Below are positions 17,026 to 63,865 of a stretch of 64,000 bases of DNA, piece by piece. The notes under the pieces are model-generated. The model saw nothing but the letters and a program-made list of their open reading frames with translations. It made no database searches and had not been told where the DNA came from. Both the position numbers and the translations under genes were made by a program. This DNA is from Oscillospiraceae bacterium. GTDB taxonomy: Bacteria > Bacillota > Clostridia > Oscillospirales > UBA929. Location: NCBI GenBank assembly GCA_031549605.1, contig JAVBPM010000031.1, positions 28,001 through 92,000 on the forward strand, given 5' to 3'. Numbering within the stretch: the first letter of the stretch is position 1; each line of letters begins with the position of its first letter.

Positions 17026-17109
17026 GCGGACGTGGTGGAATGGCAGACACGCTGGATTTAGGTTCCAGTGCCGAAAGGCATAGGGGTTCAAGTCCCCTCG
17101 TCCGCACCA
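17026..17109 (+). tRNA. tRNA-Leu (anticodon UAG), CCA encoded
   Basis: Acceptor GCGGACG/CGTCCGC, anticodon stem CTGGA/TCCAG with loop TTTAGGT, long variable arm TGCCGAAAGGCAT, T-arm GGGGTTCAAGTCCCC. Confidence 0.9.
17084..17109 (+). repeat. attL core (3' end of tRNA-Leu)
   Basis: GGGTTCAAGTCCCCTCGTCCGCACCA, identical to 63840-63865. Confidence 0.85.
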
Positions 17110-17239: not shown

Positions 17240-17267
17240 CTAAAACGCTAACTAAAACGCTAACTAA
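17240..17267 (+). repeat. tandem 12-bp repeats, putative integrase arm-type sites (P' arm)
   Basis: CTAA + AACGCTAACTAA + AACGCTAACTAA. The same 12-mer pair occurs at 63772-63795. Confidence 0.55.
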
Positions 17268-17528
17268 ATACACTGTTATGCCTTCCCAAAACGCCGTGAG
17301 CATGGCAAGCACACTCGCGGCGTTTTTCGAAAATCATGGTTTTGGAGGTGCACTTCCTCCGTTTCCTAAATATTTGCTAGCGGTCAATACACCCAACAAG
17401 CAGCGGCGTTGTCCGCCGCAGCGCCTTATTCAGAACCGAGGCAATCATTGCGACGTTTGCCGCAGAGGTAACTGTTAAGCAATCGGGATGTTACATTTCT
17501 TTTTGTTTGTCAAACAGCGAGTCTCCCT

Positions 17529-17660
17529 TCAGTTTCCAAAGCTCTCCACCCGCCGCGAGAAATGCATCGAGTTTATCCTTACAAATTGTAACATTGCGAT
17601 ACTCGCTTGTACGCGAGTCTCTTCTGCGCATAAGGCCAGTAGATACCGATTTACATTCAT
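17529..17660 (-). CDS. possible small ORF (43 aa), unknown
   Basis: Hand translation gives MNVNRYLLALCAEETRVQASIAMLQFVRINSMHFSRRVESFGN, preceded by AAGGAAGGAG. Below the ORF-track cutoff and overlapped by plus-strand ORFs. Confidence 0.25.
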   Translation of the reverse strand: MNVNRYLLALCAEETRVQASIAMLQFVRINSMHFSRRVESFGN

Positions 17661-17724
17661 CCGACTCCTTCCTTAATTCTTCAATCAGCAGGCCATCGGT
17701 GCGAATCCGCTAACCAGCTCCAAA

Positions 17725-17757
17725 ATGACCGACCAAACGGTCGGTCATTAATTTTTT
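17725..17757. terminator. bidirectional-looking hairpin terminator
   Basis: ATGACCGACC-aaac-GGTCGGTCAT, flanked by AAAA upstream and TAATTTTTT downstream. Confidence 0.5.
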
Positions 17758-17937: not shown

Positions 17938-17997
17938 AATCAATTGATTATTTACTGACTTTTTTCGACACGAAATTGCATTACATTTATATATAAT
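17938..17997 (+). promoter_or_regulatory. putative operator palindrome and promoter of the four-gene cassette
   Basis: Perfect 12-bp palindrome AATCAATTGATT (17938-17949). TTCGAC (17964-17969), 17 nt, TTATAT/TATAAT (17987-17997). Very AT-rich leader. Confidence 0.25.
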
Positions 17998-18036
17998 CGT
18001 CTTCAGTATTATTATAAAAGAAAGCGAGTTAAGGAT

Positions 18037-18753
18037 ATGAAGTATCTAAGCATTAAGAGAGCGTTCACTTCCGGTCAACTCATGAGGGATGTAATTCGAA
18101 GCAGCCGGGTGCAACTGCTTACCGAATGGCGGCTAGTGCGTCGAGGGCGACTAGATTGCCAAAACGGAATACTGCGCCAAATCGGGGATTATTTTACATC
18201 TCCATTCATCACACAAGAAGCTAGTTTGTGCAACGCCGCCATGGAAGCAGAAAAAGAGTTTTATGCTAGGGTCTCGACAAACGCTCAAGTGTCCGCTACA
18301 ACGTTGTCCCTAGCAATTGAACGAGCATTTTACACACCCACCTATCCGCAATTACCATTGTTAAATACTGCCTGCGCTGACGCGTTCGAAAAAGAGGACA
18401 ACGCATCCGACCGCGAAGCGCAGGGTAGACCTGAAGCGGCCCATATGCACGTTCAATATTATTCACCGATACATACAACTGAAAACCAAGAAATCCTTTT
18501 TGAGAACTATAAATCCCTTCGTGAGCGGTGCCATTTCCTTCAAAGCAAAGAGGCGCGGATTACCATCCTGCGTTGCAATCAACTGCGCGAACTTTTATAC
18601 GCGCGAATTGCAGCTTATTGGCGCGGCGCTTTGCGCGGCGACGAAAATTCTATGCTTGGTCTGCCACCGGTATTTGACATTTCTCCAGTTTTATGCAACC
18701 CGGAGGAAATTTTTTCAAAGCAATTTATTCAGCCAAACGAAGGAGGCAATTAG
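18037..18753 (+). CDS. cassette gene 1: hypothetical soluble helical protein (238 aa)
   Basis: Long ORF in the AT-rich segment and first gene of the coupled operon. No catalytic or binding motif recognised. Confidence 0.7.
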   Translation: MKYLSIKRAFTSGQLMRDVIRSSRVQLLTEWRLVRRGRLDCQNGILRQIGDYFTSPFITQEASLCNAAMEAEKEFYARVSTNAQVSATTLSLAIERAFYTPTYPQLPLLNTACADAFEKEDNASDREAQGRPEAAHMHVQYYSPIHTTENQEILFENYKSLRERCHFLQSKEARITILRCNQLRELLYARIAAYWRGALRGDENSMLGLPPVFDISPVLCNPEEIFSKQFIQPNEGGN

Positions 18754-18755
18754 CA

Positions 18756-19235
18756 ATGCACTATACGTGGCCATTTACCAAGCGAAAGTCCGCATTTCAA
18801 TTTCGCGCACCATTTAACGCCCCTGCCCACAAAATGCACAAACTCAGCAAATCAAAACAACGCGAAATAACAGCTCTCGTAGAGCGCTACGCAGCTAATC
18901 TGCGTAGAAAAGGAGTTGATCCCGGCGTTTGCCTCGTACTGCTCGAAAGCTATGTTGATAAGCTAATTGCCACCGAAAAGCGATCCGTCAACCAAGAGTA
19001 CCGAGGCATTCAAAGTGAAATTGAGCAACGTTACATTCGTCGATACGCAGACTTATCAGAGGCAACGCAGTGTTCAGCACAGCTCGCTCTAGAAATAGAA
19101 AACACTGAGTTCGAGTACCAGTTTATTACGAAACTTTACAAACACCACAATCCGCTCAGTAAGTTGCGAAACGGATTTACTTCTAGCGCCTGCAACGGCA
19201 GAGAAGACGATGGGGGCGATAACGACAATGACTGA
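18756..19235 (+). CDS. cassette gene 2: hypothetical helical protein with acidic tail (159 aa)
   Basis: ATG 18756 lies 2 nt after the gene-1 stop and 9 nt after AGGAGG. Basic N-terminus, coiled-coil-like middle, C-terminal REDDGGDNDND. Confidence 0.7.
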   Translation: MHYTWPFTKRKSAFQFRAPFNAPAHKMHKLSKSKQREITALVERYAANLRRKGVDPGVCLVLLESYVDKLIATEKRSVNQEYRGIQSEIEQRYIRRYADLSEATQCSAQLALEIENTEFEYQFITKLYKHHNPLSKLRNGFTSSACNGREDDGGDNDND

Positions 19236-19968
19236 TCTGTTTAAGATTAAGATGAATGGTACATTTAAGTACTCAATAGACACTGAACTAAGAAATTCCT
19301 TGGAAAAGGGCATGTGGTTCACACGAAGTTCTGTTTACGTCCCCGTACTTCTTATTTTGCTACTCGTTGATATAGCCGGTTTTTTTCAGATTACGAATCA
19401 AGTAATCGTCTCTGCGCCTACTTTAAAGGGAATTATTGTTGTCGGGTTTGGCGTTGCGTTTGAGGTGGCGCCGTTATACATTGGTTACGCTGTTTGCCTA
19501 AGATGCTACGATCTTGGGGCGCCTATCCGGAACTATATTCTCTGTTTCTCCGCCTCATCTACTCTTCTCGGTATAGTCGCCAACTTCTTCTTGCGTTTTT
19601 TCACCTTGGACACAACCGCACCGAACCACTCCTTTACCGTTGCGCTAGTAATGTTTTTATTGCCAATTATCACGAGCCTAATGAACCTAGTCTTTGGCTG
19701 CCTAAGCTTCGACCCTCTGCTAATGGAACTGCGGCGGTTGGCAAAGAAACTTTATACTTTAAAGTCGCTAAATAATCAGATGGTTGGGCTAATAGCGGAG
19801 TACAGTGCTGACTCTGACAACAAGCAGCTCGAGTTGTACGGCGCAAAGGTCGCTTACGACGATACAATAGAGGAGCTATCTTTGCTGCAGACACAGTTGA
19901 AGGCGTATGTGCAAACCTGCGCCACATCACAAAGCTTTATGACAGACATTGGAGGTCGAGCTATATGA
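19210..19968 (+). CDS. cassette gene 3: 4-TM membrane protein with cytoplasmic coiled-coil tail
   Basis: Four hydrophobic helices (VYVPVLLILLLVDIAGFF, GIIVVGFGVAFEVAPLYIGYAV, ILCFSASSTLLGIVANFFLRFF, FTVALVMFLLPIITSLMNLVFGCL), then a heptad-like tail. The alternative start at 19228 overlaps the gene-2 stop by 8 nt. Confidence 0.75.
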   Translation: MGAITTMTDLFKIKMNGTFKYSIDTELRNSLEKGMWFTRSSVYVPVLLILLLVDIAGFFQITNQVIVSAPTLKGIIVVGFGVAFEVAPLYIGYAVCLRCYDLGAPIRNYILCFSASSTLLGIVANFFLRFFTLDTTAPNHSFTVALVMFLLPIITSLMNLVFGCLSFDPLLMELRRLAKKLYTLKSLNNQMVGLIAEYSADSDNKQLELYGAKVAYDDTIEELSLLQTQLKAYVQTCATSQSFMTDIGGRAI

Positions 19969-21281
19969 AAAAATTTCCAGTTGCGCTTCTTATATTCTTT
20001 TCCACAGCAATAAGCTTATTATGCGGATGCGACCGTGTCCCCCCTCCCGGCCCCCCAGTAAAACTGGTCGTTCTGTTGGGCGCTCACTCCAACAGCAAGA
20101 CTTTTGATCGAAAAGATATGTTGACACAGCAATTTACAACTGCATATTCATCTTTAGGTGGGATACGGGTAGTTGCGATTGATGGTACTCCTGATGTTTC
20201 ACTTGACGAAAGCGGACAGGCTGTCGGTGCCCCCGATAAAGATAAATTCGCTGCATTCAAACTCAACAGAGATGTTTATACAGTCAGTCAGCTCGACCAA
20301 CAGCTCAAACCGTTTGTCGATACCGCGTACTTACAAATTGAAAAACTGCACCCAGATTGCGACGAATTTGACACTCTGATGGCTTTTTGGAAGTCCGAAG
20401 CAGCCTTCTCGAGCATTTACACTGATGCATCCGACAAAACCACACCGAAAAAGATAATAATCATAATCGACACTGGGCTTAGCACCTCCGGGGCGTTAAA
20501 CTTTGTAAATGCAGACTATTTGTCTCTGGCAGAGGCTGAAATTAACACACTAATTAATGGCCTTAGCGCTGCTAATGAATTGCCCGATCTGAATGGGGTC
20601 GACGTGTTTTGGTATGGCATAGGTGCAGTTGCCTCTCCACAAAAAAAACTATCCAACGGCCAAATCGAGAAACTTAAAGACATTTGGGAGGCGCTCATTA
20701 AAAAAGCCGGCGGCTATGTAGAGTTTTATCCCCTTGTCGAGACTGGCGATGAAAAGCAAGATTATACTGTTTCCGTTGTTCGCTTGCCCGCCACGCAAGA
20801 ATCACCGACGCCAACAACAATGTCGCCCCCATCCCCGCACCCGTCTCGCTCAAATACTCCAACCAGCGTGTACTTCCACTATGAGACAACAAACTACTCC
20901 GACAGCCCACAAGCACTAAAAGACTTGGAGTATGTTGCGAAACAAATCGAAAGCAATCCCGGCGAGAAATGGTGGATAATTGGCTGTACCGCCACAACTG
21001 AAAAACGTCTTTCAGTAAGCGATATTCTACGCAGCAGGGACACAAACACTCCCCATTTATCTATTAAAAGGGTAAATGCCGTGTTGCGTTATTTCGAAGA
21101 ATTAGGCATTCCTAAATCCCGGTTCATACTCTCCGCACAGGGGGCTTCTGACCCTTGGCACGTCTCCGACACAGTAGACACCGGGGCAATGCAAGAAAAC
21201 CGACGCGTGATTCTCGTCCGCGACAGTGATATTGCCAGCAACGAGGACAGAGCCAAACTTGAGCTTGGAGTCTTTGAGTAG
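19965..21281 (+). CDS. cassette gene 4: lipoprotein with alpha/beta N-domain, P/S/T linker and OmpA-like C-terminal domain
   Basis: ATGA overlap with gene 3. Signal plus lipobox MKKFPVALLIFFSTAISLLCGC. Alternating strand/helix region (VKLVVLLGAHS, IRVVAIDG, KKIIIIIDTGLSTSG, VDVFWYGIG). C-terminus follows the OmpA_C pattern (VYFHY...WWIIGCTATTEK...LSIKRVNAVLRYFEELGIPKSRF...ENRRVILV). Confidence 0.8.
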   Translation: MKKFPVALLIFFSTAISLLCGCDRVPPPGPPVKLVVLLGAHSNSKTFDRKDMLTQQFTTAYSSLGGIRVVAIDGTPDVSLDESGQAVGAPDKDKFAAFKLNRDVYTVSQLDQQLKPFVDTAYLQIEKLHPDCDEFDTLMAFWKSEAAFSSIYTDASDKTTPKKIIIIIDTGLSTSGALNFVNADYLSLAEAEINTLINGLSAANELPDLNGVDVFWYGIGAVASPQKKLSNGQIEKLKDIWEALIKKAGGYVEFYPLVETGDEKQDYTVSVVRLPATQESPTPTTMSPPSPHPSRSNTPTSVYFHYETTNYSDSPQALKDLEYVAKQIESNPGEKWWIIGCTATTEKRLSVSDILRSRDTNTPHLSIKRVNAVLRYFEELGIPKSRFILSAQGASDPWHVSDTVDTGAMQENRRVILVRDSDIASNEDRAKLELGVFE

Positions 21282-21311: not shown

Positions 21312-21349
21312 AAAAATAGGACAGAGGAAGGACGACACCCCTTCCTCTG
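21312..21349 (-). terminator. terminator of lysis operon (convergent with cassette)
   Basis: CAGAGGAAGG-acgacacc-CCTTCCTCTG perfect 10-bp stem. On the minus strand it is followed by CTATTTTTGG. Confidence 0.6.
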
Positions 21350-21383
21350 CCCGTAGAATTATGTATGGAATTGATTCCGTGTG

Positions 21384-21710
21384 CTAGTAATTACAATGCG
21401 CACTGTTCCGCTCGCCCCGCATCTCCATCCCCTGCTTGACCCACTGGTGCCCGCCGGTGGCGACCAGTGCGCAGACGCCGCCCTGCTTGATGGCGACGAG
21501 CGCCACCTGCGCGACCTCGGACAAGCTGCCTACCGGCATGGTCGTCAGCGCCGTGATGGCGGCCAGCAGGATGCCGACGCCGCCGAGTATGTACGGGATG
21601 AGCTTGTTGCTGATTTTCGGCGCATGGTGCTTGATGAGAGCGCCCAGCACAGCCAGCGCCGTGGTGATCCACACAAAGGTGGGGTTGATGAGCGTGTTGA
21701 TGTCCATCAC
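21384..21710 (-). CDS. phage holin
   Basis: 108 aa with 2-3 hydrophobic helices and a charged C-terminus, immediately downstream of and overlapping the endolysin gene. The ATG at 21707 is also a possible start. Confidence 0.75.
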   Translation of the reverse strand: MMDINTLINPTFVWITTALAVLGALIKHHAPKISNKLIPYILGGVGILLAAITALTTMPVGSLSEVAQVALVAIKQGGVCALVATGGHQWVKQGMEMRGERNSAHCNY

Positions 21711-22513
21711 TTCACCCCGAGTTTCTTAGCCATGCGGCCCTGCACGACAAGCCCGCGCAGGTCCGACTCTTTGATGGCCAGCTTGCCGTCGCCGACGCCG
21801 CCGAGCAGATTGTGGTCGACCAGATACTTGATAGGCTCCTGTGCCCAGACGGGCAGTTCCTCAATGGTGTTGTACACCGGCGCATTCACCTTCTGCTCCA
21901 GCGCGTCGATGCGGTCGCTCAATTCCTCATACTGTGTCATGGTCAAGCCCTCCTCGTTCTTTTCATATTTGGCGTAGTTGGGTCGTGCGTAGCCCGCGAT
22001 GCGCGAGTAAGCCAGCGCGTAGCGTTTGATGGCCACCTCGCCGCCGTTGGCGATGACCTCACTGCCGCCGCTGGTGTTGCCCTCGATGGTGTAGACGTTC
22101 TTGGCGTCGACCTTGCAGACGATGCCGGTGTGGACAATCAAGTTCTTGTCCTTAGCGTCGCGGAACATGATGATGTCGCCCGGCTGCGGGTTGCCGTCGA
22201 CCCACATCCCCTTTTTCTTAAACATCTTCGTGCCGGTCGTGCAACCGGCAAAGTGCGGCGCGATGTCCTGCTGGATGGCCGTGCCCAGCGCCCGGCGCAT
22301 AACGCAGCTGACGAACATGGCGCACCACGGCTCGCCCTGCAGGGTAGAGCCAAAGTAGTCCTTGTACCACTTGGCAAAGATGGTGTAGTTGTCGCGTCCG
22401 GCATTGGCCTTGAAGTTGAGCAGATAGGCCTCGGACGGGTTGGTGGTGCGCTTCTTTTCGAGGTAGCCGAGCCATTTGTTGGCCTCGGCCAGCACCGCGT
22501 TGGCTAATTCCAT
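21707..22513 (-). CDS. endolysin, CHAP/NlpC-P60-type amidase with C-terminal wall-binding module
   Basis: Catalytic Cys context GEPWCAMFVSCV and His context NLIVHTGIV. The C-terminal 70 aa resemble a single SLH-like module (WAQEPIKYLVDHNLLGGVGDGKL). Confidence 0.8.
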   Translation of the reverse strand: MELANAVLAEANKWLGYLEKKRTTNPSEAYLLNFKANAGRDNYTIFAKWYKDYFGSTLQGEPWCAMFVSCVMRRALGTAIQQDIAPHFAGCTTGTKMFKKKGMWVDGNPQPGDIIMFRDAKDKNLIVHTGIVCKVDAKNVYTIEGNTSGGSEVIANGGEVAIKRYALAYSRIAGYARPNYAKYEKNEEGLTMTQYEELSDRIDALEQKVNAPVYNTIEELPVWAQEPIKYLVDHNLLGGVGDGKLAIKESDLRGLVVQGRMAKKLGVK

Positions 22514-48752: not shown

Positions 48753-51254
48753 CTACGCACCCTCCTCCAGCAGGTCAAACAGCGTCGGCTGGCCAACGTC
48801 CTGCTCGGCCGCCTTCAGGTACCCAACGCCGTCGCGGAAGTAGTCGAGGCTCAACTCGGTGCCTATGCCGTACCGTCCCGCCTTCACGGCTCGCAGTGGC
48901 ACGGTAAACAGACCGGCAAACGGGTCAAAGACCACATCGCCCTTGTTTGAAAAGCGGTTTATGATGCGGTCTACGATATCGAGCTGCAGCGGACAGACGT
49001 GCATTTGGAGGTTGCCACGGCGTTGGTCTGTGTTAAGTGTTCGCATCCGATTGATGTCGTCCCACACCTCGTCGCTCCAACTGCCCGGCTGCATCACCGC
49101 AAAGGTGGACGGTAGCTTGCCGTCTTTGTCCAGTTCTTTTGCCATCTCAATATGAGCCTCATAGTCGTAGACCGTTCCGCGCGAGTATTTACGGAATAAC
49201 GTTTGTATTTTCCCGCTCTCTGCCGACATGATTTCCGCCTTGGTCACAAGTCGATCGCCGGAACTGCGCCAAAAGCCCGATGCGTCAATCTGCCACTGCG
49301 CCCGCGTGTAATCCTCTTTGCTCTTTTCAACCGGCACGTCGGCAAATCCGTCAGAGGTGTCGCTGGGCAGCTTGCGAAACAGCAAAATATACTCAGGACA
49401 CCCTACCCCCATTTTTGTGCCGTCCCTGCACTGCATGGACCAGCCAAGCCGATAGGTCTGGTTGTTCTCGCGCACAACGTCGGTCACCACGGTGATCATC
49501 CCGAAGTAACGGAATCCGTGGCGGGTGTAGTGGTCGATGCACATTGCGTGGAATGGCTCGATGGTTGGGAACCCGTCACCCGTCACGCTGCCGAACTGCA
49601 CTCGGTCTTTGACATGGCAGGCAAAGATGCGGCCGGGCTGCAAGATGCGCAGTAGCTGCGGCGTGAGATAATCCATCTGCTCAAAGAATTTGGCGGTGTT
49701 TTCGTTGTGACCGAAGTCGTTGTAGCTGGGTGTGTACTCGTAGTGGTTGGAAAACGGAATTGATGTATGGATTAACCCCACGCTGTCGCTTTCCATCTGC
49801 TCACATTCGAGAATGCAATCGTTATGTATGGCAGTAAACTGTTGACCCTGAACCTTCACACGTTCCACTCCTATCGACCGAGCCATCTTGTCTACCATGG
49901 ACACGCCGGACAGCCCGTGCTTTTTAATAATGCCTGTCATGACCTCGGTCAGCGCGTCATGTTGTTTCCACTTAGCCATAAGCACCTTGAGTATCTCCTG
50001 CTCACCCTCGGTGTAGATGATGTCGATAATGACCTGCTCACTCTGTAGAAAGCGGTAGATGCGGTGAATGGCTTGAATGAAGTCGTTGAACTCGTAATCA
50101 ATGCCGACAAAAATGGCGCGGTGGCAGTGCCGTTGAAAGTTGCAGCCGGAGCCGGACAGGCTTTTCTTGGTAGCAAACAGCTTCACCCTACCCTCGGCAA
50201 AGTCGATGACGCGCCGCTCGCGTGCGTCAAGGTCCATAGACCCGAATATGTCCACCGCATGCGGTAGTGCCGCTTTGATCTCGTGCCGCTCGGCCTCAAG
50301 GTCATGCCATAGGATAAAATGCTCATCAGGTGACATGTTCACGATTTCAGCCATTTTTGCAACACGTGCGCGGATACTGTCTCGTTTTTCTCCTGCGGCA
50401 TCGGACAGCGATAGTGAGGCGTCGCGCAGCAGTTTTGTCTGTCCGTCCTTGTCTGAATCGACCGCGGCGTAGTCGGTTTCAATCATGTGCAACCGCACGT
50501 CCATCGGCGGCAGGGCGTAGCCTTTGTCGTCATAGCCGAGATCAGACGGTTTTGTGATAAACAGTGCCCAACTGGACACCCACAGCCAAAACTCTTGTTC
50601 TTTGTGCGGGTATAGGGTAAGGTTGTTGGCTTTGGTGCTGTCTCGCTTAAAGAACCGGGTCAGCGCTTGGCCGGTGTCCATGACTTCTAGGTACCCAGCG
50701 TAATGAATCAGTTCCTTGTAGCGATTGGGCGATGGCGTCGCTGTCGACACCAGCTTATAGGGCACGCCCCTGAATTTATCGAGAAACGTCTGATAGGTCT
50801 TGCTGCCAAACGACCGCAGCACTGACGCCTCATCAAGACAGGTGGCCGTGAAGTGGCTCGGGTCGATGTCGCCGTCTCTCACCCGCTCATAGTTGGTGAG
50901 CAGTATCGCACCTTCTGCCGCTGCTGCTTCGGCCATGTTGCGGATGTATTGCGGTTCTGCCAACCCCAAAAGGTGTACTGCGTCGTGGACAAATTCCTGC
51001 TTGACGCCAAGTGGGCAGACAATCAGCGCTTTGCCGCCCATTTTTTCGGTGACGATGCGGCAATACTCCAACTGTTGTATCGTCTTTCCCAACCCGAACG
51101 ACTGAAACAGTGCCCGTTTACCGCCCTGTAACGCCCACACCACGCTGTCACGCTGGTGCGGCTTGAGCGCCGGGTGTATCTCGCTTGGGTCAATAGCAAA
51201 TCCGCTCTCGGTCGCCATTGCTATCTTAGAGCGGAGGAAGTCTGAATAGGTCAT
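48753..51254 (-). CDS. SNF2-type helicase fused to N6/N4 DNA methyltransferase
   Basis: N-terminal SNF2 motifs (LFQSFGLGKT, CLDEASVLRS, helicase-C region). C-terminal MTase motifs (TSIPF catalytic-like, VFDPFAGLFTVPLRA SAM-binding). ATG 51254. Confidence 0.85.
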   Translation of the reverse strand: MTYSDFLRSKIAMATESGFAIDPSEIHPALKPHQRDSVVWALQGGKRALFQSFGLGKTIQQLEYCRIVTEKMGGKALIVCPLGVKQEFVHDAVHLLGLAEPQYIRNMAEAAAAEGAILLTNYERVRDGDIDPSHFTATCLDEASVLRSFGSKTYQTFLDKFRGVPYKLVSTATPSPNRYKELIHYAGYLEVMDTGQALTRFFKRDSTKANNLTLYPHKEQEFWLWVSSWALFITKPSDLGYDDKGYALPPMDVRLHMIETDYAAVDSDKDGQTKLLRDASLSLSDAAGEKRDSIRARVAKMAEIVNMSPDEHFILWHDLEAERHEIKAALPHAVDIFGSMDLDARERRVIDFAEGRVKLFATKKSLSGSGCNFQRHCHRAIFVGIDYEFNDFIQAIHRIYRFLQSEQVIIDIIYTEGEQEILKVLMAKWKQHDALTEVMTGIIKKHGLSGVSMVDKMARSIGVERVKVQGQQFTAIHNDCILECEQMESDSVGLIHTSIPFSNHYEYTPSYNDFGHNENTAKFFEQMDYLTPQLLRILQPGRIFACHVKDRVQFGSVTGDGFPTIEPFHAMCIDHYTRHGFRYFGMITVVTDVVRENNQTYRLGWSMQCRDGTKMGVGCPEYILLFRKLPSDTSDGFADVPVEKSKEDYTRAQWQIDASGFWRSSGDRLVTKAEIMSAESGKIQTLFRKYSRGTVYDYEAHIEMAKELDKDGKLPSTFAVMQPGSWSDEVWDDINRMRTLNTDQRRGNLQMHVCPLQLDIVDRIINRFSNKGDVVFDPFAGLFTVPLRAVKAGRYGIGTELSLDYFRDGVGYLKAAEQDVGQPTLFDLLEEGA

Positions 51255-51354
51255 GTGCTTTACCTCGATTTGTTGAAGTTTGGTTTCTCCGGCACTCGCC
51301 GCATTCGTATGTACAAGCTCCAGCCGGTTAGGTCGTTGTAGACGCACTCGGTGG

Positions 51355-56470: not shown

Positions 56471-56719
56471 TCAGTATTGAATGCAGCCTTTTAGGTCGTC
56501 GATTGGGATGCCCAAAACGCGGCACAGTTTTAACAACGTGCCCAGCGGCAGTTTTTCCGGCACCTTGAGGTAATCACGCGCCGATCTCTCACACATGCCA
56601 AGTACGCTTGCTACCTCATCGCGTGTCATTTCGTTTGCTTCAATTGCCCCGCTGACGAGTGCGCGTAACCGGTTATAGTCTTTCCGCTTGTCAAAGCGCG
56701 TTGCTGGCATTTTTCTCAC
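56471..56719 (-). CDS. XRE-family HTH regulator heading the early leftward operon
   Basis: HTH MTRDEVASVLGMCERSARDYLK. First gene of the minus-strand early operon. Confidence 0.7.
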   Translation of the reverse strand: MRKMPATRFDKRKDYNRLRALVSGAIEANEMTRDEVASVLGMCERSARDYLKVPEKLPLGTLLKLCRVLGIPIDDLKGCIQY

Positions 56720-56724
56720 CCCCT

Positions 56725-56741
56725 TTGTCGTTTCTTGTCGT
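56725..56741. promoter_or_regulatory. direct repeats TTGTCGT x2 at 10-bp spacing
   Basis: TTGTCGTttcTTGTCGT in the divergent intergenic region 56720-56811. Confidence 0.25.
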
Positions 56742-56811
56742 CATCTGGCGGTGGCGTTTTGCCGGTTGTTGGTGTATGCTGGTTGTAACTACTTTTGAAA
56801 GGGTGGAAGCT

Positions 56812-58329
56812 ATGAAAAAGACTTGTGTGACTCTCGCGTTACTGATGCTTGTGGGGCTGGTTGGGTGCGGGAGCAAGAAGGCTGCGGAGACATCGACTGC
56901 GACGGCATCGACTAACGGCGGCGAGTCGTGGATGCAGCACTACACCGAGGCGGTGCGCCAACAATATGCGGTCAAGAGTGACGCCGAGGCCAAACGGGGC
57001 GACTTGATAGCCGTCTCCGGCACCGTTAAAAGCATCACTTCTTTCGTCGGCACGCAGGGGTACGAGATCGTTCTCGGCACCAAGGACGGCGACTGGCTTG
57101 TTGTGCTTGAGGGAACCGCCAACCCAAGGCCTTCCGTCGACAAAGAGGCAACCTTTTACGGTGTGTACAACGGCCTATCTGACGATGCCGACCTTGCAAT
57201 TTCCGACACCCCGACGTTGTATGTCGCTAGATACACAGTGAACGGGATTTCAAGGAAAACCTTCATCAAGGGCTTTGACATTGCTGACAGTTACGAGGGC
57301 AAGAGTGCCATGGAAATACGTAAAGATTTGCCGCCAACGCATACACCGCGACCCACTCAAACAGCAACCCCTGCCTCGACACCCGCACCCACAGCAACGC
57401 CAACGCCGGAGCGAACCGAATCATTTAAGGACATATCCTTCACCGTACCGTCCGGTGGCATATATCAAGATGGCAAGGATGAAGATAACAAGTGGGTCAT
57501 CGTGGAAAGCAATGGCACAATTTTGTGGTCAGCCCATTTAATGACTACTGAACCTACGCTCACGGATGTAAGCGTAGAAACAGAAAGTGAATTTTGGGCA
57601 ACAATCAATTTGATGACCGAGGCCGAAAGCAGCGCCATGACCTTTGGCGACAAGGACACCAGGTGCTGGTACGCCCGCGGCACGTGTGAACTTGGCGAGG
57701 CAAAGGAAATAACGTACACGGAGCGCATGGCATTTAAGGTCAAGGGGACGTTCTATGTTATCCTTTGTTTCCTCGACGGTAAGCCGACCGCAACAGATGC
57801 GGAGCGAGCTCCACTTTTGAACTTCCTCGCCTCCGTCGAACTTACGGGAACTGCCGCCGCCACGGCAACTTTTGAGAGCGGCCAATATGAGATAGGCACG
57901 GATATGCCTGCGGGTGAATACGTACTGGAAGCCTACGGGTCCTCTGCTTATTTCGCGATTACTACTGACGCAAACGGTGATGACATCTACGCCAACGACA
58001 ACTTTTCAAACCACTCTATAGTCACAGTTAAAGATGGGCAGTACCTAGAGCTCAGTCGCTGCAACGCGGTGCCAATTGACGAGGCCGAGAACTACGCGGA
58101 GGGGTTGGCATCACTGCCGGAGGGGATGTATAAAATCGGTTTACATTTGCCAGCCGGTAAATACAAACTTGAGGCCACCGGCAGCAGAGGCGGTTATTAC
58201 GGCCTTTACAATTCGTCGACACATAAAAACATTGTCAGCAACGACAACTTTGACGGGTCACGCTATGTGTCCGTAAAGGACGGTCAATACCTCGTTCTGA
58301 GTCGCTGTGAACTGATTGTCGGGGAGTAG
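56812..58329 (+). CDS. prophage lipoprotein with duplicated C-terminal module
   Basis: MKKTCVTLALLMLVGLVGCG lipobox, a T/P-rich linker, and two ~65-aa repeats (57871-58070 and 58114-58320). ATG 56812. Confidence 0.75.
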   Translation: MKKTCVTLALLMLVGLVGCGSKKAAETSTATASTNGGESWMQHYTEAVRQQYAVKSDAEAKRGDLIAVSGTVKSITSFVGTQGYEIVLGTKDGDWLVVLEGTANPRPSVDKEATFYGVYNGLSDDADLAISDTPTLYVARYTVNGISRKTFIKGFDIADSYEGKSAMEIRKDLPPTHTPRPTQTATPASTPAPTATPTPERTESFKDISFTVPSGGIYQDGKDEDNKWVIVESNGTILWSAHLMTTEPTLTDVSVETESEFWATINLMTEAESSAMTFGDKDTRCWYARGTCELGEAKEITYTERMAFKVKGTFYVILCFLDGKPTATDAERAPLLNFLASVELTGTAAATATFESGQYEIGTDMPAGEYVLEAYGSSAYFAITTDANGDDIYANDNFSNHSIVTVKDGQYLELSRCNAVPIDEAENYAEGLASLPEGMYKIGLHLPAGKYKLEATGSRGGYYGLYNSSTHKNIVSNDNFDGSRYVSVKDGQYLVLSRCELIVGE

Positions 58330-58421
58330 GTGTCCGCTTCCAGTCTCCCTTGTGGCTTTGCGTGATGTCTATTGTCCACATTTAGTCGCCACAGTATATT
58401 TGGCGAAAGGAGGTGAGGGAA

Positions 58422-59000
58422 GTGGAGGCTGTTTTTTTAGCACTTGTCAGTCAATCCGCACCACCTGCACCTATCTTGCTCAGCCGAGAGAACATACTGG
58501 CCACAATTTCAATTGCGGCATTTCTCATGTCACTACTTAGCTGGATTTTCGCTTGGTTTCGTCGGCGTTTGCGAATAAACTTGACAACCATTGCGTACGA
58601 AGCGAACGAGAAGCGCAGCCCGTACCGAGGCAGTCGAATCATCTACCTTACTCTCGAAAACCCATCCAACACTCCCGTTGTCATAAGGCATTTCTTCCTC
58701 GGCTCAAAGCAGGGCAAGGTTCAGTGTTGCCTTTTGCCCGTGCGCATTGGGGGCAAAACAGTGAACGAGAACGGACGCTCAAGCTGCGTGGCTGAATATT
58801 TTTCAGCAAGTTTTCCAATTACGCTTCCGGCGTTGGCGGCAGATAATTATCTTCTTCTTTTTGAAGATGCCTCACATATTCTTGCAACTGGTGCCACGGA
58901 AGCGAATCTTGAAGTTGTGACCACACGCGGCTCGAAATGGAAAAGGATACCGTTATGTTGTCCTTCGTTCCGAACACTTCTTGGTTTTCCTCAAAAATAG
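58422..59000 (+). CDS. single-pass membrane protein, unknown
   Basis: GTG 58422 after AAAGGAGGTG, TM ILATISIAAFLMSLLSWIFAWF, beta-rich C-terminal domain. Confidence 0.55.
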   Translation: MEAVFLALVSQSAPPAPILLSRENILATISIAAFLMSLLSWIFAWFRRRLRINLTTIAYEANEKRSPYRGSRIIYLTLENPSNTPVVIRHFFLGSKQGKVQCCLLPVRIGGKTVNENGRSSCVAEYFSASFPITLPALAADNYLLLFEDASHILATGATEANLEVVTTRGSKWKRIPLCCPSFRTLLGFPQK

Positions 59001-59036
59001 TGTACCTCATTGGACTATGCCACTCCCTTCGTACCC

Positions 59037-59070
59037 GCCGCCCGGCCACCCGCCGGGCGGCTTTGCTTTA
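59037..59070 (+). terminator. rho-independent terminator
   Basis: GCCGCCCGG-ccacccg-CCGGGCGGC hairpin followed by TTTGCTTT. Confidence 0.55.
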
Positions 59071-59279
59071 CGCTGTGTAAACATCGGCATCAGACATTTC
59101 ATATGAGATACAAAAAACGCACTTGATTGCCAACAACCTTAAGTCACAGTTGGACTCCATTTTGGATGAAGCACAGGTTTTCGACGATCGCCAAGAAGCT
59201 CGACAGGCTTTAATAAGCGAGCGACTCGACAAAGTTGACGCAACACAGCGTTCCCTAGAGCAAAGAATCAACGAGTTGA

Positions 59280-59456
59280 CTACGCCAGCAAGCAATAAAC
59301 AACCAACGCAATAGCGCTGACAAAGATGCCGGACAGAAGTGCGATGTGGGGAGCAACTGCGCATAAAGCTTTTCGCTTAGCATAACGGTACTCTTCAAAC
59401 GTCAAACCATCATATATTTGACGCTCAATTTCGCCTGCCTTTTTTTCGTTGAGCAC
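59280..59456 (-). CDS. small tail-anchored membrane protein (58 aa)
   Basis: Hand translation gives VLNEKKAGEIERQIYDGLTFEEYRYAKRKALCAVAPHIALLSGIFVSAIALVVYCLLA. GTG after GAAAGGAGA, 14 nt downstream of the RHH-1 stop. Below the ORF-track cutoff. Confidence 0.4.
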   Translation of the reverse strand: MLNEKKAGEIERQIYDGLTFEEYRYAKRKALCAVAPHIALLSGIFVSAIALVVYCLLA

Positions 59457-59470
59457 GGTGTATCTCCTTT

Positions 59471-59629
59471 CTACGCTGTGTCGGACATTGGCGGCGGATT
59501 TTGCTCAGCCAACCAACCCCAAATAATATGGAGCAGTAATCCGTTGACAGTCATGCCGCGCTGTTTAGCGTGTCGTTTAAGCTGTGTTCGGACATTGTCC
59601 GGCGGTCGGAACGAAAGTATCTTTGGCAC
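59471..59629 (-). CDS. ribbon-helix-helix protein RHH-1 (52 aa)
   Basis: Hand translation gives VPKILSFRPPDNVRTQLKRHAKQRGMTVNGLLLHIIWGWLAEQNPPPMSDTA. GTG after AAGGGAGGG. Strand-helix-helix pattern. Confidence 0.55.
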   Translation of the reverse strand: MPKILSFRPPDNVRTQLKRHAKQRGMTVNGLLLHIIWGWLAEQNPPPMSDTA

Positions 59630-59648
59630 GGTCAGCCCTCCCTTTTCG

Positions 59649-59741
59649 GTGATGTCACTGATACTATATCAGTTGTTATCAGTGATGTCAATATGAAAGT
59701 AGAATTATTATTGATAATGTTTTATTATCATAGTGACATCA
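59649..59741. promoter_or_regulatory. operator-like repeats between divergent RHH genes
   Basis: GTGATGTCA at 59649 and 59682, inverted TGACATCA at 59734, 9-bp inverted repeat TCACTGATA (59655) / TATCAGTGA (59677), and an extra TATCAG at 59667. Confidence 0.4.
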
Positions 59742-59760
59742 AGAAAGGTTGGTTGGTAAT

Positions 59761-59943
59761 ATGGCAACAGATAAGCGTCCGACTATGCTTAGGCTCCCTG
59801 ACGAAACCTATGAAAAAATCAGATATCTTGCATTTGTAGAGCGCCGCTCCATCAACATGGAAATTGAGCACGCTTTAGATGTGTACATCACGGCGCATGA
59901 GGCCCTGCACGGGCCAATTCAGCTTCCCGACCCAGTTGAATAA
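59761..59943 (+). CDS. ribbon-helix-helix (Arc/CopG-like) protein RHH-2
   Basis: MATDKRPTMLRLPDETYEKIRYLAFVERRSINMEIEHALDVYI. The ORF track starts at TTG 59749. Confidence 0.6.
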   Translation: MATDKRPTMLRLPDETYEKIRYLAFVERRSINMEIEHALDVYITAHEALHGPIQLPDPVE

Positions 59944-60046
59944 GCCACAGCACTCGGTCATTGACGCTTACATTTAGCCGCTGCGCCTCTTGTCTGAGTT
60001 GCTCCAACATCTCAGCCGGGAGGCGTAGTGTCGTTTGCTCGCGCAT
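59888..60046 (-). CDS. ribbon-helix-helix protein RHH-3 (52 aa), convergent with RHH-2
   Basis: Hand translation gives MREQTTLRLPAEMLEQLRQEAQRLNVSVNDRVLWLIQLGREAELARAGPHAP. ATG after GAAAGGAG. Resembles RHH-1. Its tail overlaps the RHH-2 tail by 56 nt. Confidence 0.45.
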   Translation of the reverse strand: MREQTTLRLPAEMLEQLRQEAQRLNVSVNDRVLWLIQLGREAELARAGPHAP

Positions 60047-60177
60047 CTTCCCACTCCTTTCGACAGGTTTCGATTGTGCGGTGGGTGATTTTGGTGTATG
60101 CTTAGGTAACTACAGCGTAAAAAGTCAAACGGTGCATACTCGAAATAAGCTCAACACTAATTAATGAGGTGCTAAAT

Positions 60178-60873
60178 ATGGCCGCTAAATTTTGCATGAT
60201 GTGCGGAAACCCACTTGGACTGTTGAACACAAAGAAGTCGGCGGACGGCGTCTTATGTAGCAACTGTGCGTCTATTGCCTCAAACCCACAGTTCTTTACC
60301 GTTGAGCAAATTCAAGGGCTTTGGCAAGCGCACGCTTATCGGCAGAGTGTATTTGCGCCTGCTACTCGCATACCGCTTTCTATGACAATCGCCGTGCTGG
60401 TTGATCCCACGCGGAAGATGTTCTCATTTGAGGGTGCGGATCCAATCTACTGCTTTGGTGAGGTCGAAGACGCAGACGTTGTCACTACGGGCGGCAAGGT
60501 AATCACCAAGAAGAAGGGTGGCATCACGCGAGCCGTTACAGGCGGGTTGCTCTTTGGTGCCGCTGGTGCGATCGTGGGAGCGGGTACGGCTAAAAGCCAA
60601 ACGAAGACAGTGGGAGACTATCAGCAACTGGTCGTCCGCATCTCGCACTTCACCGGCAATATCACCAAGAAGTTCACGTGGCCGAGCTCTCGCAACGTCG
60701 AGTTTTGGGAGTATTGCATGGCGAATGCTGAGGCAGAGAATGCCATCCCCGCACAACCCGCGGCTCAGCTTAGCGCCGCCGATGAAATTGCCAAGTTCAA
60801 AACCCTGCTTGACCAAGGCGTAATTACTCAGGAAGAGTTCGAGGTAAAGAAGAGACAATTACTTGGCCTGTGA
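60178..60873 (+). CDS. zinc-ribbon / glycine-zipper / SHOCT-domain protein
   Basis: N-terminal CMMCGNPL...LCSNC, central GGLLFGAAGAIVGAG, C-terminal SHOCT-like AADEIAKFKTLLDQGVITQEEFEVKKRQLLGL. ATG 60178 after GAGGTG. Confidence 0.7.
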   Translation: MAAKFCMMCGNPLGLLNTKKSADGVLCSNCASIASNPQFFTVEQIQGLWQAHAYRQSVFAPATRIPLSMTIAVLVDPTRKMFSFEGADPIYCFGEVEDADVVTTGGKVITKKKGGITRAVTGGLLFGAAGAIVGAGTAKSQTKTVGDYQQLVVRISHFTGNITKKFTWPSSRNVEFWEYCMANAEAENAIPAQPAAQLSAADEIAKFKTLLDQGVITQEEFEVKKRQLLGL

Positions 60874-60885
60874 CGCTGCTTTGCT

Positions 60886-61089
60886 TTACGCTGTGTCAGC
60901 AAACAGGTCAGCGGGCAAAACATCGAGAGCTTTTGCGATTGACAAAATGTGTTCTTCTCGCATGACCTTCCGTCCTGTCAATAGCGCATTAAATTCCTTA
61001 ACGTTAAAACCTGCTTTTTCTGCCAAAAGGCTCTGCTTAATGCATTTGGCTTTCATGACACGGCGCGTGTTCGTTGCCACCACTCCCAC
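60886..61089 (-). CDS. Cro-like XRE-family HTH protein
   Basis: HTH IKQSLLAEKAGFNVKEFNALLTGRK. GTG 61089 after GGAGGAGG. Divergent from the CI-like gene. Confidence 0.65.
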   Translation of the reverse strand: MGVVATNTRRVMKAKCIKQSLLAEKAGFNVKEFNALLTGRKVMREEHILSIAKALDVLPADLFADTA

Positions 61090-61816: not shown

Positions 61817-62692
61817 ATGCGTTACATTGAACGCGCTTCTAGTTCTTTTCTGAAGCGCACCGGCGGCAACCGGCTCCCTGTGCCCATTGAGGAGCTGCGG
61901 GACAACGTGATTATTGCGCCCTATTCTGCAGGCAGAGACCTCTTGACGCAGATGGAACAATGGGAATACGCGCAGACCGTGAAAGCCTGTTCGACCATAC
62001 GCAACGGCAAGCTGTACATATTTTATCGGGACGACCTGTCATACCACGAACGGCGCTTTGCCATCGCCCACGAATACGGTCATTACGTGCTCGGCCACAT
62101 AGCAGTCGGCGGCATTCTCGGCTACAGCGACGACGAGAACGTGCACAACAAGCAGGAGGACGAGGCCAACGCTTTCGCGCTGTATTGCCTGGCGCCTCCG
62201 GCGCTGCTGCGCGGCAAGCGTTGCCGAACAGCCAAGGACATTGAGGATGCGGCAGAGGTCGACGCCAACCACGCGCGCGAAATTCACTACAGGATGTTCG
62301 GCGAGTTGCACCCTCGCAAGCGGCTCCCACGTTGGGCGCTGTGGTCTGCAATCGGCGCAACGGCCACAGCCGCGACAATTACGGCCTGTCTCATACTTGC
62401 CCCCACCGACGACGGCACAACACACACCGACGCGCCGCCAGCGACGACGAGGATTATCGCACCCGCCACAACCAAAGCGCCGACGCCTGTCATTGCCACA
62501 CCGATTACAACGGCAGCGGTCGACACCTACTACTGGGTGGGCGAGGGAGAGGTGTACCATGCCTTTGCCGACTGCTCATACATAATAAACTCACGTAAAA
62601 TCATCAGCGGCACATTGGCCGAAGCACAACAGCACGACCCTGACCTGTGCCAGCGCTGTCGGGACAGGCTGGAGCGTGGCGACAGGCCATAA
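61817..62692 (+). CDS. ImmA/IrrE-family metalloprotease with TM segment and C-terminal Cys motif domain
   Basis: HEYGHYVLGH zinc motif. Hydrophobic helix WALWSAIGATATAATITACLILA, T/P/A-rich linker, and C-terminal YYWVGEGEVYHAFADCSYI...GTLAEA...CQRC. Confidence 0.8.
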   Translation: MRYIERASSSFLKRTGGNRLPVPIEELRDNVIIAPYSAGRDLLTQMEQWEYAQTVKACSTIRNGKLYIFYRDDLSYHERRFAIAHEYGHYVLGHIAVGGILGYSDDENVHNKQEDEANAFALYCLAPPALLRGKRCRTAKDIEDAAEVDANHAREIHYRMFGELHPRKRLPRWALWSAIGATATAATITACLILAPTDDGTTHTDAPPATTRIIAPATTKAPTPVIATPITTAAVDTYYWVGEGEVYHAFADCSYIINSRKIISGTLAEAQQHDPDLCQRCRDRLERGDRP

Positions 62693-62739
62693 ACAGAAAA
62701 AAGCCCTGCCATAAGGCAGGGCGCGAGAGGTGGTGTAAT

Positions 62740-63783
62740 ATGGTTGTCCCGGCGGCACGCAAGGTAACAAGCGGGAGATGGTTTATTCAGTTAAGGATTG
62801 GTGGCGAGAATGTAAACATTACCGAATCCACGGAAAAAAAGTGCATCGCGGCCGCGCGACTGCTCAAAGCTGAGTATCTGGCTGGTAAGCGCGTTAAGCA
62901 AGACATACCAAGCATCACTTTGCGCAGCGCCTGCACTGAGTACATCGAGACGCGGCGCTCGCGATTATCGCCCACTACCATTCAAGGGTACGAGAAAATC
63001 CGAGACAACAACTTTCAGGGCGTTATGGATAAACCCGTAAACCGAATTACATGGGAAAAGCTGGACAAAGCAATTGCGGACGAGTGCGCCATAGTGACTT
63101 GCCGAAAAAAGAAGATGTCGGCAAAGACCATACGTAACTCATTTATGTTCATCATCTCAGTGCTGAGAACGAATAAGATTAAGTTTGACGACCCTTTTTC
63201 TCTGCCGGAAATCAAAAGAACACCTATACAAATCCTACCTGCCGACGACGTGTACAGAACCGTTAAAGGAACCGACATTGAGCTGCCCTGCCTACTGGCC
63301 ATGTGGCTCACAATGTCCATATCGGAAATCCGTGGGCTCACCAAGTCGAAGTCAATACGAAACGGGCAGATCGCCATTGTGGAAACAGTTGTTGACATTG
63401 GGGGTAAACCAGTACGGAAAGAGGGCGGTAAAGAGATTGAGCGCACAAGAACACAAGCTATCCCATTGCACATACAGTGTTTAATAGATGCTGTTGACGG
63501 CGATATCATATGCCCCATCACAGCGCAAGCCATCAACAAGCGGCTTCAAAAACTGCTCGTCAAGAACGGCTTGCCGCCTATAAACTTTCACAAACTGCGG
63601 CACATATCTGCCTCCACAATGGCGGCATTGAACATTCCAACCAACTACGCACAGGAAAAAGGAGGCTGGAAAACCCCCTATACAATGAACACTGTTTACA
63701 CGCACACGTTTACAGAAGAACGCAAATTAGCAGACGCAAAAATGGACGCGTTTTTTGAAAACATTGTAAATAATGCTAACTAA
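62740..63783 (+). CDS. int: tyrosine recombinase / phage integrase
   Basis: Catalytic-domain pattern (...RGLTKS..., HKLRHISAST, GGWKTPYTMNTVYTH with the terminal Tyr). ATG 62740 after GAGAGG. Adjacent to attR. Confidence 0.9.
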   Translation: MVVPAARKVTSGRWFIQLRIGGENVNITESTEKKCIAAARLLKAEYLAGKRVKQDIPSITLRSACTEYIETRRSRLSPTTIQGYEKIRDNNFQGVMDKPVNRITWEKLDKAIADECAIVTCRKKKMSAKTIRNSFMFIISVLRTNKIKFDDPFSLPEIKRTPIQILPADDVYRTVKGTDIELPCLLAMWLTMSISEIRGLTKSKSIRNGQIAIVETVVDIGGKPVRKEGGKEIERTRTQAIPLHIQCLIDAVDGDIICPITAQAINKRLQKLLVKNGLPPINFHKLRHISASTMAALNIPTNYAQEKGGWKTPYTMNTVYTHTFTEERKLADAKMDAFFENIVNNAN

Positions 63784-63795
63784 AACGCTAACTAA
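63772..63795 (+). repeat. tandem 12-bp repeats, putative integrase arm-type sites (P arm)
   Basis: AATGCTAACTAA + AACGCTAACTAA, spanning the integrase stop codon. Matches 17244-17267. Confidence 0.55.
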
Positions 63796-63839: not shown

Positions 63840-63865
63840 GGGTTCAAGTCCCCTCGTCCGCACCA
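63840..63865 (+). repeat. attR core (displaced 3' end of tRNA-Leu)
   Basis: GGGTTCAAGTCCCCTCGTCCGCACCA, identical to 17084-17109. No tRNA 5' part lies upstream. Confidence 0.85.

Follow-up and report, generated by a model that had tools for sequence, protein, structure and literature searches.

Two putative non-enzymatic cytoplasmic partners of a lipoprotein and membrane-protein pair in a mobile cassette of gut Clostridia

Introduction

What do two small, soluble proteins without recognisable relatives do when their genes run directly into those of a membrane protein and a lipoprotein? The question is raised by a stretch of 64,000 nucleotides from an Oscillospiraceae bacterium (contig JAVBPM010000031.1, positions 28,001 to 92,000; hereafter the window), in which two open reading frames (ORFs), g1 and g2, precede a membrane pair, g3 and g4. 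An initial annotation, read from the letters of the window, had taken g1 and g2 for the cytoplasmic sensor and effector of a possible defence system whose chemistry was not obvious. Here we find that g1 and g2 are very probably real, soluble, helical proteins and obligate partners of the membrane pair. As a reading that we hold to be plausible, though just short of probable, we propose that they form the non-enzymatic cytoplasmic arm of an envelope-spanning exclusion or defence module, g1-g2-g3-g4. The module appears as cargo on mobile elements of gut Clostridia, and its products are predicted to span wall, membrane and cytoplasm.

A natural point of comparison is Zorya, in which a wall-anchored ZorA5B2 motor recruits the soluble proteins ZorC and ZorD through its cytoplasmic tail (PMC11946911). 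We therefore describe the cassette and its conservation, then the folds of its soluble members, and weigh other explanations as the evidence on each of them is given.

Results

Four overlapping genes form a compact cassette

Both soluble ORFs are present as first described, and the coordinates, lengths and quoted sequences given for them are correct: in the ORF list, g1 occupies 18037-18753 on the plus strand (238 residues) and g2 occupies 18756-19235, also on the plus strand (159 residues, with its ATG start at 18756). The motif AAGGAGG lies 9 nucleotides (nt) 5' of this ATG, and alignment with homologues favours the start at 18756 over a 180-residue ORF beginning at 18693. On the same strand follow g3 (19210-19968, 252 residues, or 246 if its start is the conserved Met at 19228) and g4 (19965-21281, 438 residues). 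The g1 stop and the g2 start are 2 nt apart, g2 and g3 overlap by 26 nt, or by 8 nt (ATGACTGA, at the g2 stop) if g3 begins at the Met conserved in its family, and g3 and g4 overlap by 4 nt. All four genes are co-oriented, with frames that overlap or abut, and they are translationally coupled. The tight linkage of g1 and g2 to the membrane pair claimed at the outset is therefore borne out by the 2-nt gap and the overlapping frames.

Diverged homologues of g1 and g2 recur in the same gene order

A word-indexed search of 5.8 billion proteins with g1 and g2 returned the query alone. Since the genes also lie in an island of low guanine-plus-cytosine (GC) content, this result would suit the view that g1 and g2 are spurious or decaying ORFs in junk DNA acquired at the end of a prophage, the setting of this copy described below. 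The word-indexed result is misleading, however, because diverged homologues do exist, and were reached through g3 synteny and exhaustive search. On the contigs of g3 relatives (34-40% identity), the places of g1 and g2 are taken by ORFs of corresponding length, whose products are 14-28% identical to the window proteins in alignments and share clear motifs with them. An exhaustive HMMER search with g1 yielded 33 clusters at E <= 1e-3 among 1.84 billion representative proteins, all of them 118-274 residues long and stand-alone, with none fused to another domain; g1 is a rare, self-contained family. All seven g1 homologues that were looked up lie in the same cassette, and profile hidden Markov models (HMMs) detect g1 and g2 beside g3 in independent contigs, with E-values of 1e-15 to 1e-118 for full-length copies. 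Independent contigs, more than 20 in number, thus carry diverged homologues in which motifs, lengths, gene order and overlaps are retained, and the g1 alignment yields a confident fold. Homologue searches, g1 fold and synteny counts together refute the spurious-ORF explanation, to which we give a negligible probability.

The g1-g2-g3-g4 order recurs in 23 diverged cassettes (less than 90% g3 identity) from gut Clostridia. These were collected by g3 scans of GTDB genomes and JGI metagenomes, and from the contigs of the seven g1 homologues, which came from the exhaustive search and from related loci. With profile HMMs, g1 was found in 19 of the 21 cassettes for which upstream DNA was available, being absent from L014 and L019, and g2 could be recognised in 21 of 22; L024 is the exception, and there the g2 slot is filled by an ORF of the same size whose product ends in an acidic tail. 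The soluble genes are thus not often missing from g3/g4 pairs, the point on which the initial annotation had considered that its view might fail, and these counts support the conclusion that g1 and g2 are obligate partners of the membrane pair. Across 14 complete cassettes, the pairwise identity matrices of the four proteins correlate (Spearman 0.52-0.79), and the cassette therefore travels as a unit; mean pairwise identity in the same set is 28% for g1, 27% for g2, 42% for g3 and 33% for g4.

Individual loci depart from this layout. The g1 slot of L014 (1219-2100) holds an unrelated, membrane-anchored protein of 293 residues with no Pfam match, which may be a functional replacement for g1. 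On a metagenome contig, L029 (6769-8097), g4 is split into three ORFs while g1, g2 and g3 are intact, as would result from decay of this copy or from frameshift errors in sequencing. The cassette whose g1 is nearest to that of the window (34% identity; L021 13431-17297 and L022 3909-7775) has five co-directional genes after g4, encoding proteins of 172, 447, 251, 342 and 74 residues, of which one has a PP2C_2 phosphatase domain and the rest have no Pfam match; they may represent an extended variant or a separate, adjacent system.

g1 and g2 are helical proteins without a recognisable catalytic fold

Scanned against Pfam, NCBIfam, PHROGs and PADLOC, g1 and g2 belong to no consistent family and give isolated weak matches in single members. 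Profile searches of PDB sequences returned only coiled-coil noise at E >= 0.12 (serine-tRNA ligase arm, UspA1, SYCE2 and LXG-type coiled coils). Four weak matches from the family libraries were likewise rejected as coiled-coil noise: DUF6323 for g1 (12.1 bits and E=0.17 against a gathering threshold of 30.6 bits, in 1 of 9 homologues), PDC-M41A for g2 (E=1.9e-4, over 80 of 298 profile positions, in 1 of 12 homologues), DpdK for g2, confined to one family member, and BlhA (E=0.23), also in one family member only. The PADLOC candidate system PDC-M41 was dismissed as well, its M41A match not extending across the family. Homology to known phage regulatory or structural proteins was found neither in PHROGs nor among phage genomes or viral models, so that the initial annotation stands unchallenged on this point. 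Nor are g1 and g2 paralogues of one another, because alignment of their profiles with hhalign gave a probability of 0.2%.

An AlphaFold2 model of g1 based on a 32-sequence alignment (predicted local distance difference test (pLDDT) 79.3, predicted template modelling score 0.72) consists mostly of two long helices. Its elements are a helix at 27-42, a beta-hairpin at 47-54, a helix at 56-99, a low-confidence loop at 100-143, a helix at 144-201 and a short helix at 222-230; the helix at 144-201 packs back along that at 56-99, generating an antiparallel coiled-coil hairpin. Conservation is high at 21-80 and 171-200, corresponding to the hairpin base and its cap, and low at 81-170, the distal coiled coil and tip, a stretch that is partly disordered and varies among homologues. 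Conserved parts include the basic N-terminal cap, with the motifs TEWRL..RGK.D and SPF..E..L, and a closing motif LRC.Q...A....YW.G.L, so that the conserved surface at the hairpin base is made up of the N-terminal cap and the YW.G.L end of the second long helix. Over its first 40 residues g1 carries an average net charge of +8.5, which makes this N-terminus the most consistently basic surface in the system.

Foldseek comparison of g1 with the PDB and with viral models (BFVD) gave no match at E <= 0.001, the best matches being generic coiled coils (JetC, the p85 iSH2 domain, the V-ATPase stalk and EnvC). Proteins of the PspA/IM30/ESCRT-III type resemble g1 in their similar size, in a basic N-terminal helix followed by a long antiparallel hairpin and in their linkage to a small membrane protein, but the beta-hairpin cap and the LRC and YW.G.L motifs are specific to g1. 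Membership in that family was rejected, as there was no Pfam match, no PDB profile match at E <= 10 and no such protein among the 50 Foldseek PDB matches listed.

For g2, a single-sequence prediction (pLDDT 63.4) places helices at 32-51, 56-97 and 102-146 between low-confidence termini, suggesting a small, roughly three-helix protein with a disordered N-terminus and a helical core at about 32-130; Foldseek found no PDB match at E <= 0.001. Conserved motifs comprise an N-terminal R-x-P-Y/F, Y(L/F).S, RRASD and NPL, the last followed by an acidic tail, which in the window reads REDDGGDNDND. The protein had been described as polarised, and its charges confirm this (net +8 in the first 35 residues, -5 in the last 20). 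The acidic tail proves to be a family trait, with a net charge of -3 or lower over the last 20 residues in 12 of 16 distinct C-termini and an average of -4.2, whereas the basic N-terminus is less conserved. This count omits the truncated L013 copy, the contig-cut L023 fragment and the duplicated L012 and L005 tails.

Neither protein has a hydrophobic segment, the maximum 19-residue hydropathy being 0.66 for g1 and 1.17 for g2 as against 2.38 for g3. The hydropathy values and predicted models thus bear out the description of g1 and g2 as soluble, cytoplasmic and helical, and the Pfam, PADLOC, PHROGs, NCBIfam, PDB and Foldseek searches agree that they lack any visible enzyme or helix-turn-helix (HTH) motif. 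Judging by the models, neither appears to adopt a catalytic, nucleotide-binding, pocket-forming or HTH fold.

The membrane pair resembles Zorya in layout but not in its parts

Hydrophobic helices of g3 lie at approximately 41-63, 72-97, 107-129 and 141-166, and after the fourth of them comes a cytoplasmic C-terminus of about 85 residues, which can be compared with the tail of the Zorya membrane subunit. Basic residues cluster in the N-terminus, the second loop and the C-terminal 85 residues, and this positive-inside distribution, read from the sequence together with hydropathy, places both ends of g3 in the cytoplasm. Invariant residues embedded in the membrane are D54, F84, A87-Y93 (motif FEVAPLYIGY), N125, R129, T155, S156, N159 and D168-P169. 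No relative of g3 was found in Pfam or PADLOC (E <= 1) or by profile search of the PDB, in which no MotA, ExbB, TolQ or ZorA chain appeared at E <= 10.

By contrast, g4 contains the sole part of the cassette that comes from a known family. A signal peptide followed by an invariant Cys22 identifies g4 as a lipoprotein. Its outer domain of about 270 residues is unclassified and includes the invariant residues D169, G171, T174 and G176 within a D-T-G-L-x-T-S-G motif, while its C-terminus is an OmpA-like peptidoglycan-binding domain (PF00691) that is matched in 16 of 16 homologues (best E=1.7e-12); the window copy itself scores E=2.4e-5 and 25.0 bits, just below the 27.2-bit cut-off. Profile matches in the PDB reach E=1.7e-11 and comprise OmpA, MotY, Pal, YfiB and MotB chains.

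The initial annotation amounts to a Zorya-like relay, in which phage attack is sensed at the envelope by g4 and g3 and passed on by way of the g3 tail to g1 and g2 as sensor and effector, for example with the g2 tail sequestering or mimicking nucleic acid. The layout does recall Zorya: a four-gene operon in defence-type neighbourhoods, an OmpA/MotB-like peptidoglycan-binding protein, a membrane protein of several passes whose cytoplasmic tail is putatively helical, and a pair of soluble partners in the cytoplasm. The conservation of the acidic g2 tail, the variability of the g1 tip and the defence-type neighbours in other genomes also fit a relay. The parts, however, differ. No MotA/ExbB/ZorA relationship is detectable for g3, among models or PDB chains, and its tail is about 85 residues long against hundreds in Zorya. 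Lipid-anchored g4 departs from the ZorB/MotB type, which has a membrane helix with a conserved Asp, and it bears the extra domain of about 270 residues; its match to the PADLOC ZorB model (E=0.029) is confined to the OmpA part. Searches of PADLOC, Pfam and the PDB link neither g1 nor g2 to the ZorC, ZorD, ZorE or ZorF/G soluble partners, and the two show no DNA-binding, helicase or nuclease domain, nor any other catalytic fold. A DNA mimic would be expected to have a longer acidic stretch than the 9-20 residues seen here, and the hosts are Gram-positive Clostridia. Membership in Zorya was rejected on these grounds, the wall-binding domain being found and the stator subunit, the ZorB/MotB-type helix and the soluble partners not, and we consider a relay of this kind unlikely.

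Other known systems were compared in the same way. Kiwa was rejected, since none of the four proteins matched a PADLOC Kiwa model or Pfam DUF4868 (KwaB) at E <= 1. Ltp of Streptococcus phage TP-J34 (PMC3952083) and SieA of P22 (PMC10883804) are similar in being prophage-encoded cargo outside the structural and replication modules, and in acting through a surface lipoprotein (Ltp) or a membrane protein (SieA) without enzymatic chemistry. They differ in sharing no sequence similarity with the cassette and in being single proteins without dedicated cytoplasmic partners, and the cassette is found mostly outside phages. An exclusion lipoprotein of the Ltp type was also rejected by direct search: in PHROGs, g4 matched only unnamed OmpA-type families, over its OmpA part, and tblastn against 50,697 phage genomes was empty. 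Pal of Tol-Pal, YiaD, and YfiB of YfiBNR share with g4 the combination of lipoprotein and peptidoglycan binding, and its C-terminal domain matches them. These belong to Gram-negative outer-membrane systems without partners resembling g1, g2 or g3, however, and the g4 scores lie far below the NCBIfam cut-offs.

The window copy is prophage cargo, and other copies lie among mobile and defence-type genes

In the window, the cassette lies within a prophage of 46.8 kilobases. A host tRNA-Leu gene (17026-17109, plus strand; ARAGORN, with an Rfam tRNA score of 57 bits) ends in 26 base pairs (bp) that form the attL core (17084-17109, plus strand) and are repeated exactly at 63840-63865 (plus strand), the attR core, just 3' of a tyrosine integrase gene (62647-63783, plus strand; Pfam Phage_integrase). 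Exact repeat search also revealed a tandem-like 21-bp repeat, GCTAACTAAAACGCTAACTAA, at 17247-17267 (plus strand) and beside the integrase at 63775-63795. It is possibly an arm-type site of the integrase, and the copy at 17247 marks the DNA from 17110 on as phage. The prophage lysis genes (21384-22513, minus strand) consist of a holin gene at 21384-21710 and a CHAP endolysin gene at 21707-22513, assigned through Pfam Phage_holin_5_2 and CHAP on the same genes in L001; they adjoin and face the cassette. The cassette thus has attL on one side and the lysis genes on the other, and lies at the far end of the prophage from the integrase, a position typical for a moron (an accessory prophage cargo gene). 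Elsewhere the prophage encodes tail fibre-like ORFs, a tape-measure protein, a large terminase and a repressor with an ImmA-like peptidase. SpoIIE is encoded on the host side of the att site, which identifies the host as a spore-forming Firmicute.

Composition sets the four genes apart from their surroundings. Against about 60% for the window, GC content is 44-47% across 17.1-21.3 kilobases, a low-GC island that the four ORFs fill. Among sampled genes, GC at third codon positions is 45-51% in the cassette, compared with 66-85% in the lysin, tail fibre, tape-measure and terminase genes and 76% in the host spoIIE. The cassette is therefore foreign to phage and host alike.

The other carriers are metagenome-assembled genomes (MAGs) of gut or rumen Clostridia. 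Although the surroundings differ from one carrier to the next, mobile-element or conflict-type genes recur in them; those near the cassette encode MobA/MobL and MobA/VirD2 relaxases, RepA_N, IstB, TnpV, an integrase fragment and a D5 primase, as well as an NB-ARC/TPR protein (STAND), DUF1016, RelB/YoeB, HipA, an AAA_15 OLD-type ATPase and a TIR protein with a ParA-like ATPase. The suggestion that the cassette stands in a possible defence setting gains from these mobile-element and defence-type neighbourhoods. One carrier MAG, L018 (JAMPEQ010000008.1), is labelled Bacteroides sp. where all others are Clostridia/Bacillota, which may reflect a binning error or cross-phylum transfer; its cassette lies directly 3' of a TIR-domain gene and a ParA-like ATPase gene.

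Several unrelated HTH regulators are encoded directly upstream of cassettes elsewhere, and three mutually unrelated proteins recur immediately 5' of the cassette. One combines a HAD-hydrolase domain with a short region resembling an HTH protein (L016 5499-6620 and L038 1088-2221; 51% identical), the second is a divergently encoded protein of 375-381 residues whose family is unassigned (L029 2135-3262 and L034 114-1259, both minus strand), and the third is a divergently encoded HTH-like protein of 276 residues (L019 6603-7433 and L028 3785-4618, both minus strand). These recurring proteins hint at local transcriptional control, which is not seen in the prophage copy.

Much of this would also be expected of an accessory envelope module with no part in defence, a wall-membrane tether or stress reporter beneath which g1 and g2 form a cytoskeleton-like scaffold, and which improves the fitness of its carrier, for instance in wall integrity, in adhesion or in the tolerance of stress. 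Tethering of the envelope and signalling of stress are tasks of Pal, YiaD, YfiB and similar lipoproteins of the OmpA-like kind, and it is these families that the g4 C-terminal domain matches; coiled-coil proteins are often scaffolds, some loci have housekeeping neighbours, and HTH regulators are often found upstream. Against this, the distribution is rare and patchy, as the 33 g1 clusters illustrate, the composition is foreign to prophage and host, and the repeated siting on a prophage, on mobilisable elements and in toxin-antitoxin, TIR and STAND islands is a better fit to conflict cargo. We regard an envelope module as rather unlikely.

The same neighbourhoods bear on an addiction module similar to toxin-antitoxin systems, in which g3 would be a membrane-damaging toxin restrained by g1, g2 or both, thereby stabilising the mobile element. 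Invariant charged and polar residues in the g3 membrane helices, translational coupling of the genes and their occurrence on mobile elements, beside classical toxin-antitoxin pairs, are what this explanation would predict. Four conserved genes, including one for a large wall-binding lipoprotein, nevertheless exceed what a toxin-antitoxin system needs, and g1 is dispensable in 2 of 21 cassettes, leaving this explanation very unlikely.

Flanking elements and further prophage cargo

Upstream of g1, a hairpin with an 11-bp stem and a T-run (17724-17749, plus strand), a consensus match from a terminator scan, would shield the cassette from upstream transcription. A tentative, weak sigma-70-like promoter match, TTTATA-18 nt-TATTAT (17986-18015, plus strand; 9 of 12 positions), lies 22 nt 5' of g1; promoter-like sites in the region, this one included, are not above shuffled expectation. 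Downstream, a hairpin with a 14-bp stem (21319-21352, called on the minus strand by the scan) separates the ends of g4 and the holin gene, which converge here, and is likely to be their shared terminator. The tRNA was the sole match in an Rfam scan of the region.

The 927 bp between the tRNA gene and g1 showed no similarity to any related locus by tblastx and blastn. They include, at 17491-17715 on the minus strand, a 72-codon stop-to-stop frame with an internal ORF of only 46 residues, beside the strong hairpin at 17724-17749; this frame shows no similarity to any related locus and seems to be the remains of a gene in the stretch from attL to the cassette.

Further into the prophage, an 864-residue protein (48753-51347, minus strand) fuses an SNF2-related helicase to N6/N4 DNA methylase domains and, from its domain content, may serve phage self-protection or anti-restriction. 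A second low-GC block (47-53% GC) at 56600-61000, near the lysogeny module, encodes a lipoprotein-like orphan of 556 residues with no Pfam match (56659-58329), an orphan of 195 residues with a hydrophobic N-terminus (58413-59000) and a DUF4428+SHOCT protein (60169-60873); it looks like another cargo region of the same prophage.

Discussion

We posit that g1 and g2 would dock together on the predicted cytoplasmic parts of g3, with the conserved base of g1 and the R-x-P-Y/F motif and acidic tail of g2 as candidate contact elements. The g2 tail may pair with the basic N-terminus of g1, which would be its natural basic partner within the cassette because it is the most consistently basic surface available (+8.5 against -4.2). 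Together, the two proteins would act as an adaptor or regulatory arm rather than as catalytic effectors, while g4 and g3 would report or control events at the wall and membrane. Any effector activity would more plausibly be based in the membrane, at g3, since g1 and g2 lack a catalytic fold and g3 has invariant polar residues. Because of the moron position and the mobile and defence-type neighbourhoods, exclusion of phages or mobile DNA is our best functional guess: in the lysogen, the cassette would most likely act as a prophage moron guarding its host against phages or other mobile DNA that arrive from outside, whether by keeping them out of the cell or by a gated leak through g3 in the membrane.

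This proposal retains the part of the initial annotation that saw in g1 and g2 the cytoplasmic partners of a membrane pair in a probable conflict system, and abandons its sensor and effector roles. Nothing assigns either role to either protein, and in their predicted folds both look more like adaptors or regulators.

Several observations weigh against a role in exclusion or defence, or against the details of the proposed arm. The charge of the g2 tail does not significantly match that of the g1 N-terminus, the g3 N-terminus or the g3 tail across 13 cassettes, in a comparison aimed at the earlier idea that the tail docks on a basic partner. The low conservation of g1 and g2 may reflect loose coiled-coil constraints rather than an arms race. 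PADLOC gives no supported match for the cassette. No relatives were found in 2.9 million IMG/VR contigs, in the phage genomes at DNA or protein level or among PLSDB plasmids, and absence from the IMG/VR and phage sets marks the cassette as atypical of phages. The surroundings at some loci appear chromosomal, as at L002 with IleRS downstream, and an activity residing in the unclassified outer domain of g4 could alter this view.

The four families of the cassette lie outside every described system. Taken to its fullest extent, our proposal would make the cassette an undescribed, mobile-element-borne class of immunity in Gram-positive gut bacteria, in which the output of a wall-tethered lipoprotein and membrane complex is governed by the non-enzymatic g1 and g2. 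The tip of g1 would read the invader, the g2 tail would be a releasable latch on the g1 cap, and infection would be stopped at the membrane without a nuclease, a nucleoside triphosphatase or an NADase; in this complete form we consider the proposal doubtful.

Many uncharacterised cassettes exist, and this one stands out by its fixed synteny, its enzyme-free, envelope-spanning design, its little-explored host group and its prophage test case. If it is not a defence system, it still comprises four new protein families with fixed synteny and a confident predicted fold for g1. If it is protective, it would be a defence or exclusion system in which no enzyme can be recognised and whose components are two coiled-coil proteins, a small polar membrane protein and an anchor in the wall. 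Systems of this kind are invisible to defence finders that rely on homology, and the hosts of this one are strictly anaerobic gut Clostridia, a group with little experimental work on defence. A natural test is at hand in the prophage copy, through comparison of a lysogen with and without the four genes.

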